Shown here piece by piece: positions 50,619-57,943 of a stretch of DNA of 64,000 nt. The position numbers and the translations under genes were made by a program. The stretch's first letter is position 1, and each line of letters opens with the position of its first letter. Under the pieces are notes generated by a model. That model did no database searches and was not told the DNA's origin. It saw only the letters and a program-made list of their open reading frames with translations. The stretch comes from Myxococcota bacterium (GTDB lineage Bacteria > Myxococcota_A > UBA9160 > SMWR01). The stretch is from NCBI GenBank assembly GCA_035258825.1, contig DATFWW010000025.1, positions 17,805-81,804 of the forward strand, written 5' to 3'.

Positions 50619-52019
50619 GTGGAGAGCGTCACCTCCTCCTCCTCGAGCGCGCCGGCTACCTTCTCGCTGCGCGGGAAACCCCGGTCGATCGAGCTCGAGG
50701 CCGAGGGCATCCACCACCCGACCGGCGCGCGCTTCGGCGGGCCCCTCTACACCGCGTATCGCGACATCACCCACCTCGCCAGCTCGTCGCGCGCGATCTG
50801 GATCGGCACGCGGCGCTCCGTGTACGTGATTCCGCGGCGCGCATTCGTCGACCCGCACGGCCCCGAGCACCTGGTGCGCGCGCTGCTCGAGCATATCGCG
50901 CGCCAGCCCGGCGGCTCCGCGCAGCTGGCGCACATGGCCGAGATCGAGGAGACCGCGCGCGAAGTCCGGTCGCTGCGCGCCACCTGGGCGCTCGTGATCG
51001 CCTGCGCGGCGATCTACGCCGCGCAGCTGCTCGGCGGCGGCAACGTCTACACGGTCGGCTATTTCGCCGGCGGACTCGCCGCAGACGGCGATTGGTGGCG
51101 GATCGTCACGGGCAATCTGCTGCACGTGAACGCCGTCCACCTGATCCTCAATCTGCTCGGGTTGCTCGCCGTCGGATCGATCGTCGAGCGCGCGCTCGGC
51201 ACCGCCGCCACCGCGTGTGTGATGGCGGCCTCGGGACTCGGGGCCATGGCCGCCGCGTGGTGGAGCCCGCTTCCAGTCGTCGGCGTCTCGGGGATCGTGT
51301 TCGGCCTGCTCGCCGCCGCGCTGTGGATCGAGCTCTGCTTCGGCGGCGAGCTGCCCGCGTGGTGGCGCGTGCCGCGCCGCGCGCTGTTCGGCGCGACCGC
51401 GCTCTCCACGCTGATCTCGTTCCTGCCGTTCGTCGCCGGCGGTGCGCACGCGGGCGGATTCGCCGCAGGCGGGCTCGCTGCCGCCGCACTCGCGCCGCGC
51501 GGGCTTCGCCTCGACCCGAGCGGGATCGGATTGCGCACGGCGGCCGGCGTCAGCGCGGCGGTCGCGGCATTCGCGATCGCCGCGGCCGGATACGAGCTCC
51601 TGCGCGACGGAGAGTTCGCGGCGCGTTTCGCGGCCCGGCTCGCGCGTCTACCCGACGTCTCCGCGAACGAACTCAACAACCATGCCTGGACGATCGCCGT
51701 GGACGAGAGGTCGTCCCCGGCGCTGCTCGAAGCCGCGCTCGAGCTCGCCGAACGCGCCGCGGACGAGACACAGCACTCCGAGCCGTACATCCTCGACACG
51801 CTCGCCGAGGTGCACTTCCAGCTCGGACACCGCGTCGAGGCGGTCGCCGCGATCGACGAGGCGATCCAGCGCGCGCCGGGTGAGGACTACTACCGCGAGC
51901 AGCGGCGGCGCTTCCTCGGCGAGCGCGATCCGGAGGATCGCCCCGATTACGTGCCGCCCGAACAGCGGGAGTCGGAGCCGGAGCACGAGGCTCCGGACGA
52001 GGGCGGCCTCAGCGTCTAG
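50619..52019 (+). CDS. Rhomboid-family intramembrane serine protease with N-terminal cytoplasmic domain and C-terminal helical-repeat extension
   Basis: It contains 'WWRIVTGNLLHVNAVHLILNLL' (HxxxN), 'GVSGIVFGLL' (GxSG catalytic Ser) and 'GGAHAGGFAAG' (catalytic His). Confidence 0.85.
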   Translation: MESVTSSSSSAPATFSLRGKPRSIELEAEGIHHPTGARFGGPLYTAYRDITHLASSSRAIWIGTRRSVYVIPRRAFVDPHGPEHLVRALLEHIARQPGGSAQLAHMAEIEETAREVRSLRATWALVIACAAIYAAQLLGGGNVYTVGYFAGGLAADGDWWRIVTGNLLHVNAVHLILNLLGLLAVGSIVERALGTAATACVMAASGLGAMAAAWWSPLPVVGVSGIVFGLLAAALWIELCFGGELPAWWRVPRRALFGATALSTLISFLPFVAGGAHAGGFAAGGLAAAALAPRGLRLDPSGIGLRTAAGVSAAVAAFAIAAAGYELLRDGEFAARFAARLARLPDVSANELNNHAWTIAVDERSSPALLEAALELAERAADETQHSEPYILDTLAEVHFQLGHRVEAVAAIDEAIQRAPGEDYYREQRRRFLGERDPEDRPDYVPPEQRESEPEHEAPDEGGLSV

Positions 52020-52040
52020 GCCGACTGTGGCGATCTGGGT

Positions 52041-53006
52041 TCACGGCGTGAACTCGTCGCCGTCGTGCGCGACCGCCACCTTGCCGTCGAACTCTTCGTC
52101 GACGCGGCTCGTGATCTGGAGGTCGAGCACGGGGGGCTGGCGCATCCGGATCAGCGCGAGTGCGCCGACTCCGGCACGGCGCGCGATCGCGCCGGCCTGC
52201 GCGAAGTCGGTGTAGATCGCGGCTTCGCGCGCGAGGCGGTCCGGATCGACCGCGAGGCTCGTCGCCTCCGCCTCCTCGCGCGTCGGCACGTGATTGGCGT
52301 CGTGGAGCAGCAGGTTCGCGCCGCGCGCGAGCGCCTCGAGCGCGGCAGCGTCCCAGCCCGTCCCGCCGACCACCGCGCTGCGGCCGTTCGCCTCGATCCG
52401 CCACGCGAGCGCGGGCAGCGGGCCTCCACTGAGCGCGCCCGCTCGCAGGGCGAGGCCGCCGAGCGCCTCCTGCGCGCCGTCGCCGACCTCGCGCGCGTCG
52501 ATCGCAGGCGGCGTGGGGTCGTCGCCGAGCGCGCGCGATCGCGCGACGACGCCCGCGGAGATCTCCGCGACCACGTGCTGCGCGAGCGCCGCGGTGCCGG
52601 GCGGTCCCACCACGCGCACGGGTGCGCGGCGCCCCGCGAGCCAGGCCGCGGCCAGCAGGTCGTCGAGGCCGACGGTGTTCTCGGGCAGGAGACTCGTGAG
52701 CAGCACTGCGTCCGGCTGGCTCGGCGGGATCTTCGCCGCGCGCAGCGCCTCGGCCACGCCGCGCCCCGCGTCGACGAGCGCGACCTCGGATCCGACCGCG
52801 GCCGCGATCGAAGTGCCGCGCCGGTTGTGGTCCTCGGCCGCGCCCGCGGTGCCGAGCACCACGACCGTGAAGCGCTCGAACGAGCGCGGCGCCAGCGGCA
52901 GGAAGCCGGCCGTGACGCGGTCGAACTTCCACGCCGCGCACGTGAGCGCCCAGCTCATCGCGCCCACCGCCAGCGCGATCAACAGCCCGACGGCGCGGAT
53001 GTTCAC
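52041..53006 (-). CDS. Membrane-anchored MBL-fold (RNase Z-like) protein with degenerate metal-binding motif
   Basis: It has the N-terminal anchor 'VGLLIALAVGAMSWALTCAAW' and the MBL-like 'VVVLGTAGAAEDHNRRGTSIAA...ALVDAGRG'. The HxHxDH position reads 'LLTSLLPENTVGL'. The GTGA overlaps the purU stop. Confidence 0.6.
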   Translation of the reverse strand: MNIRAVGLLIALAVGAMSWALTCAAWKFDRVTAGFLPLAPRSFERFTVVVLGTAGAAEDHNRRGTSIAAAVGSEVALVDAGRGVAEALRAAKIPPSQPDAVLLTSLLPENTVGLDDLLAAAWLAGRRAPVRVVGPPGTAALAQHVVAEISAGVVARSRALGDDPTPPAIDAREVGDGAQEALGGLALRAGALSGGPLPALAWRIEANGRSAVVGGTGWDAAALEALARGANLLLHDANHVPTREEAEATSLAVDPDRLAREAAIYTDFAQAGAIARRAGVGALALIRMRQPPVLDLQITSRVDEEFDGKVAVAHDGDEFTP

Positions 53007-53872
53007 GAGAAGACGACCGTCTTGTTCCCGTACACGAGCACGCGGTCTTCGAGGTGCCAGCGCACGGCGCGCGAGAGCACGTTGCGCTCCACGTCGGCGC
53101 CCTTGCGCACGAGCTCGGCCGCCGTGTCGCGGTGCGAGGCGCGGATCACGTCCTGCTCGATGATCGGGCCCTCGTCGAGGTCCTTGGTGGCATAGTGGGC
53201 CGTGGCGCCGATCAGCTTGACGCCGCGTTCGTGCGCCTGTTGATAGGGGCGCCCGCCGCTGAACGCGGGCAGGAACGAGTGGTGGATGTTGATGATGCGA
53301 TGCGCGAATCGCTCGACGAACTCCGGCGAGAGGATCTGCATGTAGCGCGCGAGCACGACGAGATCGATCGCGTTCTCCTCGAGCAGCGCGATCTGCGCCG
53401 ACTCCTGGGCGGGCTTCGTGTCGGGCCGGACCGGGAATACGCGATAGGGCACGCCGAACTGCGCGGCGACGGGCGCCAGCTGCTCGTGGTTGGACACGAT
53501 CAGCGGGATGTCGCAGGCGAGCTCGCCCGAGCGGTGCCGCAGGAGCAGGTCGTAGAGGCAGTGATCCGTGCGCGAGACGAAGATCGCGACGCGCTTGCGC
53601 CGCGCGGAGTCGCACAGGCGCCAGGTCATTCGCAGCCTCGCGCCGACCTCCGCGATCGCGTTCTCGAGGGTCGTTTGGTCGGTGCGCAGCTCCGAGGCGT
53701 CGAAGTGGATGCGCTGGAAGAAGATCCCCGCGACGGCGTCGGTGTGCTGGTCGGCGTCGAGGATGTTCGCGCCGTGTCCGTAGAGCAGCTGGGCGAGCGC
53801 CGCGACGATGCCGCGCTGGTCGGGGCAGGACACGAGCAGCGTGGCAGTCGAGGACCTCGCGGGGGCCGACAT
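53003..53872 (-). CDS. purU: Formyltetrahydrofolate deformylase
   Basis: It has the N-terminal ACT domain 'LLVSCPDQRGIVAALAQLLYGHGANI'. The formyltransferase core has 'RVAIFVSRTDHCLYDLL', 'IINIHHSFLPAFSGGRPYQQA' and 'GATAHYATKDLDEGPII'. Confidence 0.95.
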   Translation of the reverse strand: MSAPARSSTATLLVSCPDQRGIVAALAQLLYGHGANILDADQHTDAVAGIFFQRIHFDASELRTDQTTLENAIAEVGARLRMTWRLCDSARRKRVAIFVSRTDHCLYDLLLRHRSGELACDIPLIVSNHEQLAPVAAQFGVPYRVFPVRPDTKPAQESAQIALLEENAIDLVVLARYMQILSPEFVERFAHRIINIHHSFLPAFSGGRPYQQAHERGVKLIGATAHYATKDLDEGPIIEQDVIRASHRDTAAELVRKGADVERNVLSRAVRWHLEDRVLVYGNKTVVFS

Positions 53873-53901
53873 GGCCGGTAGGGTCCGCGATCTCCCCAGG
53901 C

Positions 53902-53975
53902 AAAAAAAGGCCCCGAGAGCAGGCGCCGGGTGACCGGCTGCCTTCGGAGCGGCTACGGCATCCGCGCTCTCGGGG
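53902..53975 (-). terminator. Intrinsic-terminator-like hairpin plus U7 tract 30 nt upstream of the purU start
   Basis: On the minus strand, CCCCGAGAGC (53975-53966) pairs with GCUCUCGGGG (53920-53911). The helix encloses two small hairpins and is followed by CC and UUUUUUU (53908-53902). Confidence 0.6.
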
Positions 53976-54227
53976 CGGTGGCGCTGGGAACCTGCGTCCC
54001 CTTTGCCGAGACTGAATTCGGCTCGTGGCGCTAGGACGCCGCCACCTCACTCGCCGTAGTACTGCTTTGGTTCACCGAATCACCTCCGTCTCGGCGTGGG
54101 GTACATCCAGCGGGGCCCAGACCCCGCCTCCTGACCGGTTCCCAAGGTGGTCGCCGTTACCGCCCCTTCCGGCCGCCCCCCGCGGCCGACTTCGGCCGAG
54201 TGGGACTCGGGGACGAGTGAGGTCCCC
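53902..54227 (-). ncRNA. Candidate structured RNA: either a cis-regulatory leader of purU (riboswitch/attenuator-like) or a stand-alone rod-shaped sRNA. The class is not identified.
   Basis: This is a 415-nt gap with no credible ORF and locally reduced GC. Four nested long-range helices are visible by eye (coordinates in the corresponding finding). There is also a 12-bp complement between 54223-54212 and 54055-44. The closing helix shares CCCC (53975-53972) with the terminator stem. Confidence 0.4.
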
Positions 54228-54287
54228 TGCTGCGCAGCCTATCGGACGCGCGGAGCGATCACCACAGTCGCCACCGGTGATTTGGCA

Positions 54288-56249
54288 TCAGGGGAGCGTG
54301 TAGGCGATCACCGCGTCCCCGATCGGGGATCCGACCGCCGCGTGGCCGCCCGGCGCGACGACGAGGAACTGCTTGTGGCCGGGTCCTAGCTTGTAGGTGA
54401 TCGGGCCCGCGTGCAGGCCGGCGGGCAGCTCGAACGCGGCGATCCGCGCGCCCGTCCGGATGTCGTGCACGCGCAGCACGGGCTCGCGCGTGCCGCCGTG
54501 GAACACGAGGCCGCTCGCGGTGACGAGCGCAGGCCCGTAGCCAGAGGTGCCCGGATCGCCCTCGCGCGCACTCGTCGACGCGGTCCACGCGATCTCGCCG
54601 CGCGCGAGGTCCACCGCCACGAGCCGGCCCCAGGGCGGGCGGTTGCACGGAACGCCGTCCTTCCGGAACACCACGCGGCCGTGGATCGGGTGGACCCGGT
54701 AGCGGTCGCCCGTGCCGTGCCCCGTGAGCACCCACCAGAGATTGCGCAGCGAGGTGCCGCTGATCGGCCGCACGTCCGCACCCCCGCCCGTGGTGCGCTC
54801 GCCGACCTGTTCGAGCGTCACGATGTGGACGAGATTCTGAACGGGCACCACGAGCAGCCCGCGCGCGGGGTCGAAGCTCGCGCCCGACCAGTTCGCGCCG
54901 CCGCCCGTGAACGGGTAGACCACCGAGCCGCGCAGGCTCGGCGGCGTGAACAGCCCATCGTTGCGCAGCGTGGCCAGGCGCTGGCGGCACGCCGCGAGGT
55001 GATCGGGCGAGAGCGCGTAGAGATCGACGTCGTCGAGGCGCTGCGGCACCAGCGGCGGCGGTGCGGTCGGCACGGGCTGAGTCGGCCAGGCGTGTTCGCC
55101 GGGCACGTCGCTCGCGGGCACGGGCCGCTCCTCGACCGGGAACAGCGGCTTGCCGGTCGCGCGGTCGAGCACGAACACGAAGCCGTGTTTGGTCGCCTGC
55201 ACGACCGCCTCGACGCGCCTTCCCTCGCGCTCGACGGTCGCGAGCACGGGTGGCGCGGCGAGGTCGTAGTCCCAGAGATCGTGGTGGACGGTCTGGAAGT
55301 GCCAGATCGGGCGCCCGGTCGCCGCGTCGAGCGCGACGAGGGAATCGCTGTACAGATCTTCGCCCCGGCGGTCGCCGCCGTAGAAGTCGGGGCTCGGCGT
55401 CGAGACGGGCAGGAAGATCCAGCCGCGCGAGAGATCGGCGGTGATCGTCGACCACACGTTCGCGGCACCCGTGAGCGCGGTGCCGGTCTCCCAGGTCTCG
55501 AAGCCGGGCTCGCCCTCGTGCGGGATCGTGTGGAAGGTCCAGCGCAGCGCGCCCGTGCGCACGTCGAACCCGCGCACGTCGCCGGGCGGCGCGTCGGCGC
55601 GCAGCGTGTCGGCGATCGACGAGCCCACGGTGATCACGTCGCCTACCACCGTGCCGGGCGACGTGACGTTGTACTCGCGCGGGTCGTAGAGCGGCGCGAT
55701 CCCATCGAGCAGGTTCACGGTGCCCTGCGTGCCGAAATCGGCGCACGGCCGCCCGGTGGCCGCGTCGAGCGCGAACAGGCGCGCGTCGAGCGTGGCGAGG
55801 AACACACGAGCGGCACACGCGCCGTTCGCGTGCGGATCGCGCCAGTAGGCGACGCCGCGGCTGATCCACATGTTGGCGTAGATGCCGCCGCCCTCGAGGT
55901 TCGGATCGAACTTCCAGAGCTCGCGGCCGGTCTCGGGATCGAGCGCGATCACGCGGTTGCGCGGCGTCGTGAAGATCAGGCGGCCGTCGACGACGATCGG
56001 CGTCGACTCGAACGCGCTGCTGCGGTTGACGGCGGGCGGGAGCCACGAACGCCACGCATCGCCGTGGTGGTAGGTCCAGGCGACGCGCAGCGACGCCACG
56101 TTCTCCCAGGTGATGTCCGTGAGCGGCGAGTAGCGGCCGCCGCCGGGCCCCCCCTCGGTGTACGGCCAATCTGCGCTCTGCGGCGGATCTGCGCTCGCCG
56201 CGGCCGCGGCGACCGCGAGTCCTGCGAGCAACCAGCCCACGCCGCGCAT
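54288..56249 (-). CDS. Periplasmic PQQ-dependent (quinoprotein) dehydrogenase, glucose/quinate dehydrogenase-like beta-propeller
   Basis: It has the signal peptide 'WLLAGLAVAAAAASA'. It also contains 'STPIVVDGRLIFTTPRNRVIALDPETGRELW', 'LFALDAATGRP', 'ANVWSTITADLSRGWIFLPVSTPSPDFYGG', 'SLVALDAATGRPIWHFQTVHHDLWDYD' and 'GFVFVLDRATGKPLFP'. Confidence 0.9.
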   Translation of the reverse strand: MRGVGWLLAGLAVAAAAASADPPQSADWPYTEGGPGGGRYSPLTDITWENVASLRVAWTYHHGDAWRSWLPPAVNRSSAFESTPIVVDGRLIFTTPRNRVIALDPETGRELWKFDPNLEGGGIYANMWISRGVAYWRDPHANGACAARVFLATLDARLFALDAATGRPCADFGTQGTVNLLDGIAPLYDPREYNVTSPGTVVGDVITVGSSIADTLRADAPPGDVRGFDVRTGALRWTFHTIPHEGEPGFETWETGTALTGAANVWSTITADLSRGWIFLPVSTPSPDFYGGDRRGEDLYSDSLVALDAATGRPIWHFQTVHHDLWDYDLAAPPVLATVEREGRRVEAVVQATKHGFVFVLDRATGKPLFPVEERPVPASDVPGEHAWPTQPVPTAPPPLVPQRLDDVDLYALSPDHLAACRQRLATLRNDGLFTPPSLRGSVVYPFTGGGANWSGASFDPARGLLVVPVQNLVHIVTLEQVGERTTGGGADVRPISGTSLRNLWWVLTGHGTGDRYRVHPIHGRVVFRKDGVPCNRPPWGRLVAVDLARGEIAWTASTSAREGDPGTSGYGPALVTASGLVFHGGTREPVLRVHDIRTGARIAAFELPAGLHAGPITYKLGPGHKQFLVVAPGGHAAVGSPIGDAVIAYTLP

Positions 56250-56263
56250 CGCGAAAGAGTAGA

Positions 56264-57943
56264 ATGGCGCCCCGCATGCCCGCCTCCCACCCTGGTGATT
56301 TCCGTTCGCCTCCGGCTCGCTCTGCGCTGGACGGCACGTTCGCCTGCCGCGACGAGCTGACGCCGCTCGTCTTCCTCGAGCGCACCGTCCGCGTGTTCCC
56401 GGGCAAGACCGCGCTGGTCTACGGCGGCGTGCGCCGCACGTGGGCCGAGTTCGGCGAAGACGTCGGCCGCTTCGCGGGCGCGCTCGTGCGCGCCGGAGCT
56501 TCGCCGGGCGACCGCGTCGCGGTGCTCGCGCCGAACGTGCCGGCGCTGCTCGCGGCTCACTTCGCCGTGCTGCTCGTGCGCGGCGCGCTCGTGGCGATCA
56601 ACACGCGGCTCAACGAATCCGAGATCGGCTACATCCTCGACCACTCGGGCGCGAAGGTGGTGCTCGCCGACCCCGAGCTCGCACCGCGCGTCGCGGCCGC
56701 GCCCAGCCAGCTGCGCGCGCGGCCGCGGCTCGTGAACCTCGAGGATCCGGTCGCGGGCATCACCGAGCGCGTGCTCGACGGGCCGTCGTTCGCCGAGTTC
56801 GTCGAGGGCGCACCCGTGCTGCCGATTGCGGGCGGCGTCGACGACGAGAACCGGATCACCTCGATCAACTACACCTCGGGCACCACGGGCCGCCCGAAGG
56901 GCGTGATGTACACGCACCGCGGCGCCGCGATCAACGCGCTCGGCGAGGTGATCGTGCACGGTCTCGAGCGCGACTCGGTCTACCTCTGGACGCTGCCGAT
57001 GTTCCACTGCAACGGCTGGTGCTTTCCGTGGGCGGTCACCGCTGCGGGCGGCACGCACGTGATGCTGCGCGCGATCGATCCGGGCCGCGTGATCCGGCTG
57101 ATCCAGGCCGAGCGCGTCACCCACTTCAACGGCGCGCCGACCGTGCTGCTCATGCTCGCCGAGGCGCCCGAGGCGAAGGGCGTGCGCTTCGACCCGCAGG
57201 TCCGCGTCGCGACGGGCGGGTCGCCGCCCTCGCCGACACTGCTCGCGCGCGTGGAGGAGATGGGGATCCGCGTGACCCACCTCTACGGCCTCACCGAGAC
57301 CTACGGCCCGCACGTCTACTGCGAGCTGCAGCCCGGCTGGGAGCGCCTCGACGTGGAGCAGCGCGCCGCGGTGATGGCGCGCCAGGGCGTGCCCTATCAC
57401 GTGGCCACGCACGTGCGCGTGGTGGACGGCGAGCTGCGCGACGTTCCCGCCGACGCGCAGACGATGGGCGAAGTGGTGATGCGCGGCAACAACGTGATGG
57501 CGGGTTATTTCGAGGACGCGGAGGCCACCGCGAAGGCGTTCGAGGGCGGCTGGTTCCACTCGGGCGATCTCGGCGTGATGCACCCCGACGGCTACATCGA
57601 GCTGCGCGACCGCAAGAAGGACATCATCATCAGCGGCGGCGAGAACATCTCCACGATCGAGGTGGAGCACACGGTCGTGAAGCACCCGGCCGTGCTCGAG
57701 TGCGCGGTGGTGGCGATGCCGCACGAGAAGTGGGGCGAGGCGCCGAAGGCGTTCGTCGCGCTGCGCCCGGGTCATCGCGTGACCGAGGAGGAGCTGATCG
57801 CGTTCTGCCGTGAGCGTCTCGCGCACTTCAAGTGCCCGAAGGCGATCGAGTTCGGCGATCTGCCCAAGACCTCGACCGGCAAGATCCAGAAGTTCCGGCT
57901 GCGCGAGAAGGAGTGGGCCGGCCGCGCGAGCCGGATCCATTGA
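56264..57943 (+). CDS. AMP-forming acyl-CoA synthetase (medium-chain/aromatic acid:CoA ligase-like)
   Basis: It has the AMP-binding motif 'INYTSGTTGRPKGV', then 'YGLTETYGP', 'WFHSGDLG', 'RKKDIIISGGENI' and 'LPKTSTGKIQKFRLRE'. An ATG at 56276 is an alternative start. Confidence 0.9.
   Translation: MAPRMPASHPGDFRSPPARSALDGTFACRDELTPLVFLERTVRVFPGKTALVYGGVRRTWAEFGEDVGRFAGALVRAGASPGDRVAVLAPNVPALLAAHFAVLLVRGALVAINTRLNESEIGYILDHSGAKVVLADPELAPRVAAAPSQLRARPRLVNLEDPVAGITERVLDGPSFAEFVEGAPVLPIAGGVDDENRITSINYTSGTTGRPKGVMYTHRGAAINALGEVIVHGLERDSVYLWTLPMFHCNGWCFPWAVTAAGGTHVMLRAIDPGRVIRLIQAERVTHFNGAPTVLLMLAEAPEAKGVRFDPQVRVATGGSPPSPTLLARVEEMGIRVTHLYGLTETYGPHVYCELQPGWERLDVEQRAAVMARQGVPYHVATHVRVVDGELRDVPADAQTMGEVVMRGNNVMAGYFEDAEATAKAFEGGWFHSGDLGVMHPDGYIELRDRKKDIIISGGENISTIEVEHTVVKHPAVLECAVVAMPHEKWGEAPKAFVALRPGHRVTEEELIAFCRERLAHFKCPKAIEFGDLPKTSTGKIQKFRLREKEWAGRASRIH

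Follow-up and report, generated by a model that had tools for sequence, protein, structure and literature searches.

The intergenic gap at 53873-54287 (minus strand) of a 64,000-nt stretch of DNA from a Myxococcota bacterium (contig DATFWW010000025.1; the whole stretch is hereafter called the window), which separates a gene for a pyrroloquinoline quinone (PQQ)-dependent dehydrogenase from purU, the gene for formyltetrahydrofolate deformylase, contains a real, conserved and unusual RNA gene. Its product looks like a small RNA (sRNA) distantly related to Ms_IGR-5 of actinobacteria, a known but uncharacterised kind. With a probability of about 60%, the observations as a whole are best explained by an independent gene for a structured RNA of ~330 nt that is gated by translation and remotely resembles Ms_IGR-5. 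The interval from 54264 down to 53902 on the minus strand is predicted to be a self-contained transcription unit with a promoter and an intrinsic terminator, and the predicted transcript (53902-54229, ~328 nt) extends from ~7 nt after the -10 hexamer to the end of a U tract; we infer its 5' end, at ~54229, from promoter geometry. A first-pass annotation had read the gap as a structured leader controlling purU. Its structured RNA, its terminator and its one pseudoknot are retained here, and half of its helices, its assertion that the gap lacks an open reading frame (ORF) and its interpretation of the adjacency to purU are not. All features of the RNA described below are on the minus strand, and coordinates are positions in the window.

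A genome scan with purU returned one homolog of the intergenic DNA, at a locus (L004) where it lies on the strand opposite to purU, and contigs encoding closer purU homologs yielded six further copies, all in tandem with purU and preceded by different genes (PQQ dehydrogenase, acyl-CoA synthetase or FGGY kinase). A metagenome scan with the invariant core CGGCGAGTGAGGTGGNGGCG retrieved at least 120 stretches, and an nhmmer profile, which covers 54268-53901 in the window, produced 97 matches, corresponding to at least ~95 loci besides the window, with 80 distinct full-length copies. Most of the homologous loci are of Myxococcota type; one group, the most divergent, is assigned to Nitrospirota by its neighbouring genes, the products of which are 86-97% identical to proteins named from Nitrospira and from Nitrospirae metagenome-assembled genomes (MAGs). 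By these sequence assignments, the Myxococcota-type copies plus the Nitrospira-like neighbours of the divergent group, the RNA family spans at least two phyla. No match to the family core pattern of 19 specified bases was found in viral contigs, and eight actinobacterial purU loci contained no copy of the RNA, hence no link of purU to Ms_IGR-5 there. Literature searches with the peptide and core strings, and for RNA motifs of purU, Myxococcota or Nitrospira, returned nothing relevant.

Folding of the single sequence is no better than chance (minimum free energy -196 kcal/mol, z = -1.38, equalled by 7 of 100 shuffles), so that the structure is established by comparative data only. The structure model, built from regional RNAalifold runs and explicit pair counts, comprises ten helices and three long-range pairings. 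This 13-helix model is 91.1% paired over 46 diverse sequences; shifting the partners by 1-3 columns leaves no more than 48.6% of cells paired. Changes on both sides are seen in 38 of the 79 pairs, a number attained by none of 500 shuffles (22.4 +/- 2.2), and covariation is present in nine helices. The highly structured RNA that had been proposed on the minus strand is therefore borne out by its homologs, and is conserved.

The 5' domain opens with hairpin P1 (54209-54227; GGGGA/UCCCC, conserved loop CCUCACUCG), in which four of five pairs show both-side changes, followed by the P2 closing stem (54175-54206; GUCCC/GGGGC; three of five pairs), the apical insert of which ranges from 0 to ~100 nt among homologs. 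P3 (CCGG/CCGG) and P4 lie together at 54135-54172; P3 is weaker (75% paired), and P4 (GGGGCGGU/ACCACCUU, loop AACGGCG) has both-side changes in seven of eight pairs and a conserved internal mismatch. Hairpin P5 (54110-54127; GCGGGG/CCCCGC, conserved loop UCUGGG) is paired in 91% of cells, with both-side changes in five of its six pairs. Two long-range helices come next: helix A joins GCCGAGAC (54088-54095) to GUCUCGGC (54012-54005) and is 83-90% paired with three to five pairs changed on both sides, and helix B joins GAUUCGG (54075-54081) to CCGAAUU (54021-54015) with six of seven pairs so changed. Their two 3' strands (CCGAAUU ... GUCUCGGC) lie together at 54005-54021. About 72% of cells pair in helix B on the MAFFT alignment, and duplex predictions recover this helix in most lineages. 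Hairpin P8 (53986-54000; GGGA/UCCC) is 90-95% paired with little covariation; a pairing that would replace it, GCGUCC/GGGACGC, does not hold in L183, L089 and L137, all Nitrospirota copies.

Four nested helices had previously been combined into a rod, the closing helix of which was thought to compete with the terminator. All four complementarities exist in the window, and the inner two (CCGAGAC/GUCUCGG and GAUUCGG/CCGAAUU) are the covarying helices A and B. The outer two, GGGGCGGU/ACCGCCCC and UGGGAACC/GGUUCCCA, do not stand: their joint pairing is 66.7%, and as many both-side changes as observed arise in 155 of 500 shuffles. The second of them is 51% paired, and the closing helix GGGGCGGU/ACCGCCCC pairs only as long as both strands are unchanged, with compensatory change in two of eight pairs and ~3 cells. 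The strands concerned belong to local hairpins, GGGGCGGU being the 5' strand of P4 and GGUUCCC, the strand formerly paired with UGGGAACC, lying inside P8 as its 3' strand. Because the outer helices fail covariation and their strands fall in P4 and P8, the competition between closing helix and terminator has no comparative support.

The predicted promoter of the unit, of sigma-70 type, has the conserved consensus TGGnnn-17-TAnnnT. In the window, a -35-like hexamer TGGTGA (54259-54264) lies 17 nt upstream of a -10 hexamer TAGGCT (54236-54241), itself at a fixed distance upstream of P1; a TAnnnT box occurs at this fixed distance in 78 of the 80 full-length homologs, reading TATAGT in the AT-richer Nitrospirota copies, and TGGnnn, TAGnnn or TTGnnn is the commonest pattern at the -35 position. 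In one Nitrospira-type copy (L089:6455-6500), tandem GTGAATAGTA repeats are inserted between the TATAGT box and P1, and the 5' end of this copy may differ because the repeats separate the two. At the other end of the unit, a Y-shaped terminator with a three-way junction (53911-53975) consists of a 10-bp closing stem, arm 1 (GCGG/CCGC, loop AUGCCGUAG, two of four pairs changed on both sides) and a variable arm 2. The stem, CCCCGAGAGC (53975-53966) with GCUCUCGGGG (53920-53911), and the U7 tract behind it (53902-53908) are present as originally described; the stem is 99% paired, with both-side changes in eight of ten pairs among 74 sequences and seven of ten in the 46-sequence set, and a U-rich tail follows it in nearly all aligned lineages. 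A second pairing of the terminator 3' strand, with CCCCGAGUC, was rejected because CCCCGAGUC is constant and the terminator stem covaries. A strict consensus scan of the window sequence for promoters and terminators found neither, since it needs a 3-8-nt loop and a close match to TTGACA/TATAAT, and here the terminator is branched and the promoter is of a different type. The transcribed strand is fixed by the promoter, by the terminator with its U tract and by G-U-only variation: in helix A and in the pairings PK2 and PK3 described below, G-U is seen on the minus strand, not A-C.

Contrary to the earlier view that the gap holds no plausible ORF, a conserved mini-ORF of 14 codons plus stop (GTG...TAG, VNQSSTTASEVAAS; 54031-54075) lies behind a strong Shine-Dalgarno sequence, GGAGGUGA (54080-54087). 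The stop codon is at the identical position in 77 of 77 aligned homologs (TAG in 44, TGA in 26, TAA in 7, never TGG), and a GGAGG-type Shine-Dalgarno precedes the detected start by 5-9 nt in 76 of the 77, with GTG (48), TTG (17) or ATG (11) as the start codon; the remaining homolog, L204, carries the variant Shine-Dalgarno AAGGGGGU ahead of a GTG. Six homologs have an ORF of 15 codons and the others one of 14, the sole length variant being the addition of one whole codon. A set of 56 distinct ORF sequences contains no stop codon in frame 0; frame +1 is interrupted in 13 of them and frame +2 in every one. The first half of the encoded peptide is variable (x5), with codons 2-6 varying freely, and its end reads ...TASEV(A/V)AS. 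Codons 7-13 (ACG GCG AGU GAG GUG GCG GCG) are invariant at all three positions across two phyla; the sole exception, GCG to GUG, replaces the amino acid but leaves a G-U pair in place. These patterns indicate two separate constraints, a probable passage of the ribosome in a fixed frame and an apparent RNA-level constraint on the 3' half of the ORF. The covariation of the long-range helices A and B further shows the Shine-Dalgarno and start codon to be enclosed by them, a putatively sequestered ribosome-binding site: the 5' strand of helix B is the spacer plus the first base of the start codon, and in other lineages helix A extends over the Shine-Dalgarno itself, pairing AAGGAGG with CCUUCUU.

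Three long-range pairings converge on the same ORF. PK1 connects GAGUGA (54052-54047) with UCACUC in the P1 loop (54220-54215) and is 98% paired with no covariation; it corresponds to the pseudoknot proposed in the first-pass annotation, in which 54223-54212 and 54055-54044 are complementary over 11 Watson-Crick pairs and one G-U. PK2 connects CUACGGC (54059-54053) with GCCGUAG in the loop of terminator arm 1 (53959-53953; 98.8% paired). PK3 connects the codons GGUGGC (54046-54041) with GCCACC just 5' of the terminator (53977-53982; 99.4-99.6% paired), and its variation is all wobble-compatible, which holds only when read on the minus strand (C-G to U-G, U-A to U-G). Conservation, and only conservation, supports the 3' half of the ORF as a hub of three long-range contacts. 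Several motifs are duplicated within the RNA, namely ACGGCG (P4 loop and ORF), CGCCG/UGCCG (helix A and terminator loop) and CUGGG (P5 loop, and P8 of some lineages), which would be compatible with alternative pairings.

Searches against Rfam at the gathering score returned nothing across the whole window and nothing at the element in 13 distant and 15 further loci. At E <= 10, none of the ZTP/pfl, THF-I, THF-II, glycine, SAM/SAH and 6S families appeared in 53850-54320 or in a Nitrospirota copy, in keeping with the initial impression that the element matches none of these classes. The only recurrent signal was RF02471, Ms_IGR-5, an actinobacterial sRNA first found in Mycobacterium smegmatis. 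Ten copies (the window, L089, L183, L196, L109, L193, L147, L098, L166 and L171) align with the full model, positions 1-184, over the segment from Shine-Dalgarno to terminator at 19-35 bits; the window scores 19.0 bits (E = 0.03) and the best copy, L183, 35.4 bits (E = 6.4e-5 in a 19.7-kb search). The 3' ~190 nt are collinear with the model, comprising Shine-Dalgarno, mini-ORF, spacer, CACC box and long-stem terminator, with the shared strings GGAGGUG, GUGAGGUGG, the stop column, UUCCCnGC..CACC and the terminator stem CCCCGAG...CUCGGGG. The RF02471 consensus contains a Shine-Dalgarno followed by UUG AUU GAU UUA UGG ACA UGU GAG GUG GCU GCC CGC UAG, that is, a mini-ORF that shares frame and stop position with the one described here and has EVAAR as its C-terminus, as read from the consensus, not from member sequences. 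Both RNAs are stand-alone, uncharacterised sRNA units. They differ in phylum, in ORF length (14 codons here, 12 in the consensus) and in the ~135-nt 5' domain (P1-P5), which has no counterpart in the Rfam model. Their folds differ as well: Rfam helix 1 (GGUGGU/GCUGCC) is not formed here, where helices A and B close the ribosome-binding site, and of the RF02471 helices the terminator helix is matched and helices 1 and 2 contain several non-canonical pairs in the alignments of the window and L196.

In M. smegmatis, IGR-5 is a Northern-validated, nicotinamide adenine dinucleotide (NAD)-capped and uncharacterised sRNA located between MSMEG_5794 and MSMEG_5795 (10.1101/2021.12.14.472595; PMC8780764); it is an sRNA unit in Streptomyces avermitilis too (PMC8780764), and its transcript is reported to appear longer than annotated (PMC10454040). 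MSMEG_5795 is orthologous to Rv0812, which is an aminodeoxychorismate lyase / D-amino-acid transaminase (PMC8105722). Ms_IGR-5 thus adjoins the orthologue of a folate and peptidoglycan enzyme, a second folate-pathway neighbour for an RNA of this type. The Shine-Dalgarno/ORF segment also gives weak recurrent matches to the Caulobacter sRNA CC2171 (RF01867) at L089:6632-6711 and L183:464-541 (~20 bits, gathering score 75), which possibly reflect chance or a further distant relative.

Other known RNAs share single features with the one described here. Transfer-messenger RNA (tmRNA, SsrA) is likewise a pseudoknotted RNA of ~350 nt with a short internal reading frame and conserved stop, but the present RNA is without a tRNA-like domain and its ORF has a canonical Shine-Dalgarno and start codon; an ARAGORN search of 53700-54500 found no tmRNA gene, and there was no Rfam tmRNA match. 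The dual-function sRNAs SgrS/SgrT, RNAIII/hld and SR1/SR1P are also stand-alone small RNA genes that carry a small ORF; they bear no relation in sequence or structure, and here the ORF sits in the structural core, with its nucleotides invariant besides its codons. In the 6S RNA-ygfA arrangement the gene for a folate enzyme immediately follows that for a non-coding RNA, and in the clade of the window a one-carbon gene likewise immediately follows that for a stable RNA, the two probably being transcribed together, but RF00013 has no match at the element. The same model does detect real 6S genes at two loci, each convergent with the RNA: L137:1096-1274 (+) in a Nitrospirota-type locus (55.9 bits, 3' ends 10 nt apart) and L147:223-379 (+) in a Myxococcota-type locus (50.8 bits, 3' ends ~235 nt apart). 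A general adjacency to 6S was rejected, these being the only two loci with a 6S gene beside the RNA.

The relation of the unit to purU varies among loci. The two are in tandem at ~27 loci, where purU is 72-100% identical to that of the window except for two short partial matches, and divergent at ~45 loci, where purU is mostly 65-76% identical and a distance of 19-150 nt, exceeded at a few loci, separates the promoter end of the RNA from the purU start. At some of the divergent loci the purU start is merely 19-32 nt from the -35 box of the RNA, a spacing that requires overlapping promoters. An acyl-CoA synthetase gene (NF006020) lies ~170-310 nt from the other side of the unit at most loci of either orientation, and the ~370-nt unit (53902-54268 in the window) is inverted in place between this gene and purU relative to L004, L096, L108 and ~40 other loci. 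Because orientation splits cleanly by purU identity, the sequences fit a single ancestral inversion, and an invertible element was rejected on the same grounds. In the L004 clade a second hairpin and then a convergent gene come after the RNA; the Nitrospirota copies have FtsX/MacB, NlpC/P60, a convergent Macro-domain gene or a convergent adenosine kinase gene as neighbours, and purU is absent. At L083, purU is 83% identical and has the same downstream genes, and the RNA is absent; tandem ~24-nt repeats (GCGGCCGTGGCTCCAAAGCCGCGAA) occupy its place upstream of purU (L083:2780-2960). The conserved promoter of the RNA, the ~45 loci at which it points away from purU, the copies without purU and the purU of L083 without RNA together contradict a purU-specific 5' leader, and the RNA is not, as a cis-acting riboswitch or leader is, always 5' of and co-oriented with a regulated gene. 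In the clade of the window, 14-176 nt separate the end of the terminator from the purU start (29 nt in the window itself), so that read-through could matter for purU locally. A weak tendency is seen for the neighbouring genes to touch purine or folate metabolism repeatedly (purU, adenosine kinase, the Rv0812 orthologue).

These features suggest how an independent, translation-gated RNA might operate. Loading of a ribosome would require an unpaired Shine-Dalgarno and start codon, a state most plausibly available during transcription, when both emerge ~60-85 nt ahead of the 3' strands that complete helices B and A. Translation of the 14 codons would have to melt PK1-PK3, so that the final fold would differ between molecules that had and had not been translated; conservation would act on the passage of the ribosome, not on the N-terminal half of the peptide. 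In the clade of the window, purU would probably be transcribed by read-through of the terminator or from a promoter overlapping it, read-through being suggested by a terminator that abuts purU (29 nt).

Several points weigh against this reading. The gating by translation and the alternative folds are pure inference, and the transcript, its 5' end and the translation of the mini-ORF are predictions from sequence. PK1-PK3 are nearly invariant, show no compensatory changes and rest on conservation and wobble-only variation, and no second conformer or antiterminator with covariation was found among the aligned homologs. Alignment of the variable regions by MAFFT depresses the pairing observed for P3, P4 and helix B. 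The remote homology of the 3' two-thirds to Ms_IGR-5, compared via the Rfam model, is probable but formally unproven, all ten RF02471 scores being below the gathering score of 45 bits. Finally, the peptide itself could be selected: its C-terminal TASEVAA is invariant, and the Ms_IGR-5 consensus keeps E-V-A-A by different alanine codons.

The rival that survives best, although we consider it unlikely, is a cis-acting, ribosome-mediated leader-peptide attenuator for whichever gene lies past the terminator, purU in the clade of the window or acyl-CoA synthetase in the other orientation, with translation or stalling in the 14-codon ORF deciding whether the terminator forms. In leader-peptide transcription attenuators such as trpL, thrL, pheL and hisL, a structured RNA similarly houses a short ORF and its Shine-Dalgarno and is closed by an intrinsic terminator, and the released RNA can itself be a product, as in rnTrpL of Sinorhizobium, a trans-acting attenuator sRNA with the 14-aa peptide peTrpL. 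The strong Shine-Dalgarno of the short ORF upstream of an intrinsic terminator, the complementarity of the ORF to the terminator-junction loop and to GCCACC beside the terminator stem, and the presence of acyl-CoA synthetase downstream on the same strand in 16 loci would all suit such a mechanism, as would the 14-176-nt gap before purU, which leaves little room for a promoter in several loci. The ORF, however, has no run of tandem regulatory codons, codons 2-6 being free to vary, and serves as a long-range pairing hub where attenuators have hairpins in a 1:2/2:3/3:4 series; the competing helix that had been proposed fails, and no other candidate for an antiterminator with covariation was found. 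The stop codon is 56 nt upstream of the terminator stem, so that a terminating ribosome cannot cover the stem. A co-oriented downstream gene is often missing, the next gene being convergent or unrelated in the L004 clade and in Nitrospirota, and the start of acyl-CoA synthetase is usually 120-300 nt past the terminator, with room for its own promoter. The RNA family has its own promoter everywhere.

If the 14-residue peptide (...TASEVAAS) were the product, the RNA structure would merely regulate or stabilise its mRNA. The stop shared by all 77 homologs, the start and Shine-Dalgarno found in 76, the seven C-terminal residues invariant across two phyla and the E-V-A-A of the Ms_IGR-5 consensus, written with other alanine codons, are what such a small protein gene would predict. 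The invariance of codons 7-13 extends to their wobble positions in both phyla, and hence argues for selection on the RNA; the only frequent change, GCG to GUG, alters the residue and preserves a G-U pair. As ~285 of the 330 nt are non-coding yet conserved and covarying, and the N-terminal half of the peptide is unconstrained, we regard this explanation as improbable.

A metabolite-sensing ON-riboswitch for purU, with a one-carbon or purine ligand and a closing helix competing with the terminator, was the logic first suggested for the element and now appears very improbable. The RNA is large, conserved and structured, with conserved loops in its 5' domain (P1-P5), and purine or folate genes are often nearby, including purU, adenosine kinase in some Nitrospirota loci and the Rv0812 orthologue beside Ms_IGR-5 in M. 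smegmatis. Against this, no Rfam riboswitch family matches at E <= 10, the closing helix lacks covariation and the second rod helix is 51% paired, and synteny disagrees: orientation to purU is reversed in most loci, purU is absent from others, and the RNA has its own promoter and convergent genes downstream. The idea that the gap is without function, being the 3' untranslated region of the PQQ dehydrogenase gene or chance G+C-rich self-complementarity, agrees with the single-sequence z of only -1.38 and is already refuted by at least ~95 homologous loci with different upstream genes, covariation in nine helices and a conserved promoter.

In the window, the RNA unit is flanked by the genes first named for it, the PQQ-dependent dehydrogenase (54288-56249, minus strand) upstream and purU (53003-53872, minus strand), which starts 29 nt past the U tract. 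The identity of purU follows from the Pfam domains ACT and Formyl_trans_N and from TIGR00655 PurU (393 bits, cutoff 286), and its product has 100% identity with a protein named from a Myxococcota MAG. The lower G+C content noticed for the gap was confirmed (0.62-0.65 at 54000-54150, 0.70-0.79 around it). An acyl-CoA synthetase homolog (~56300-57943, plus strand) is 84% identical to a protein of L084; in the window and in L081 the PQQ-dependent dehydrogenase gene is inserted between the RNA and acyl-CoA synthetase, which are direct neighbours in most relatives. Beyond purU lie a gene for a 310-aa protein without a Pfam family (52009-52941, minus strand), the L084 homolog of which has a weak Lactamase_B match, and a convergent rhomboid-family gene (50619-52019, plus strand), both syntenic with purU in many relatives. 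The start of the 310-aa gene overlaps the purU stop by 4 nt in relatives; its first possible start in the window is 61 nt past the purU stop, so the translational coupling of purU to this metallo-beta-lactamase-like gene, as previously suggested, is not evident in the window.

For annotation, an sRNA gene should be entered for the gap and no riboswitch or leader of purU, and the family to which it belongs, with at least ~95 loci in two phyla, is large and annotated by no Rfam model. The probable link would give Ms_IGR-5, a validated but functionally orphan mycobacterial sRNA, a testable feature in the form of a mini-ORF with a sequestered ribosome-binding site and a pairing hub. More tentatively, it is possible that Myxococcota, Nitrospirota and Actinobacteria (Ms_IGR-5) share an ancient, hitherto unrecognised class of ribosome-sensing RNA, stand-alone and with its fold written by translation of a 14-codon frame in the tertiary core, which may convey translational or formyl-Met/one-carbon status either to a target in trans or to the purine and folate genes nearby. 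The most conserved nucleotides of the RNA are codons and tertiary-contact strands at once, an uncommon architecture, and if translation gates the fold, this would be a new coupling of ribosome activity to RNA-based regulation.

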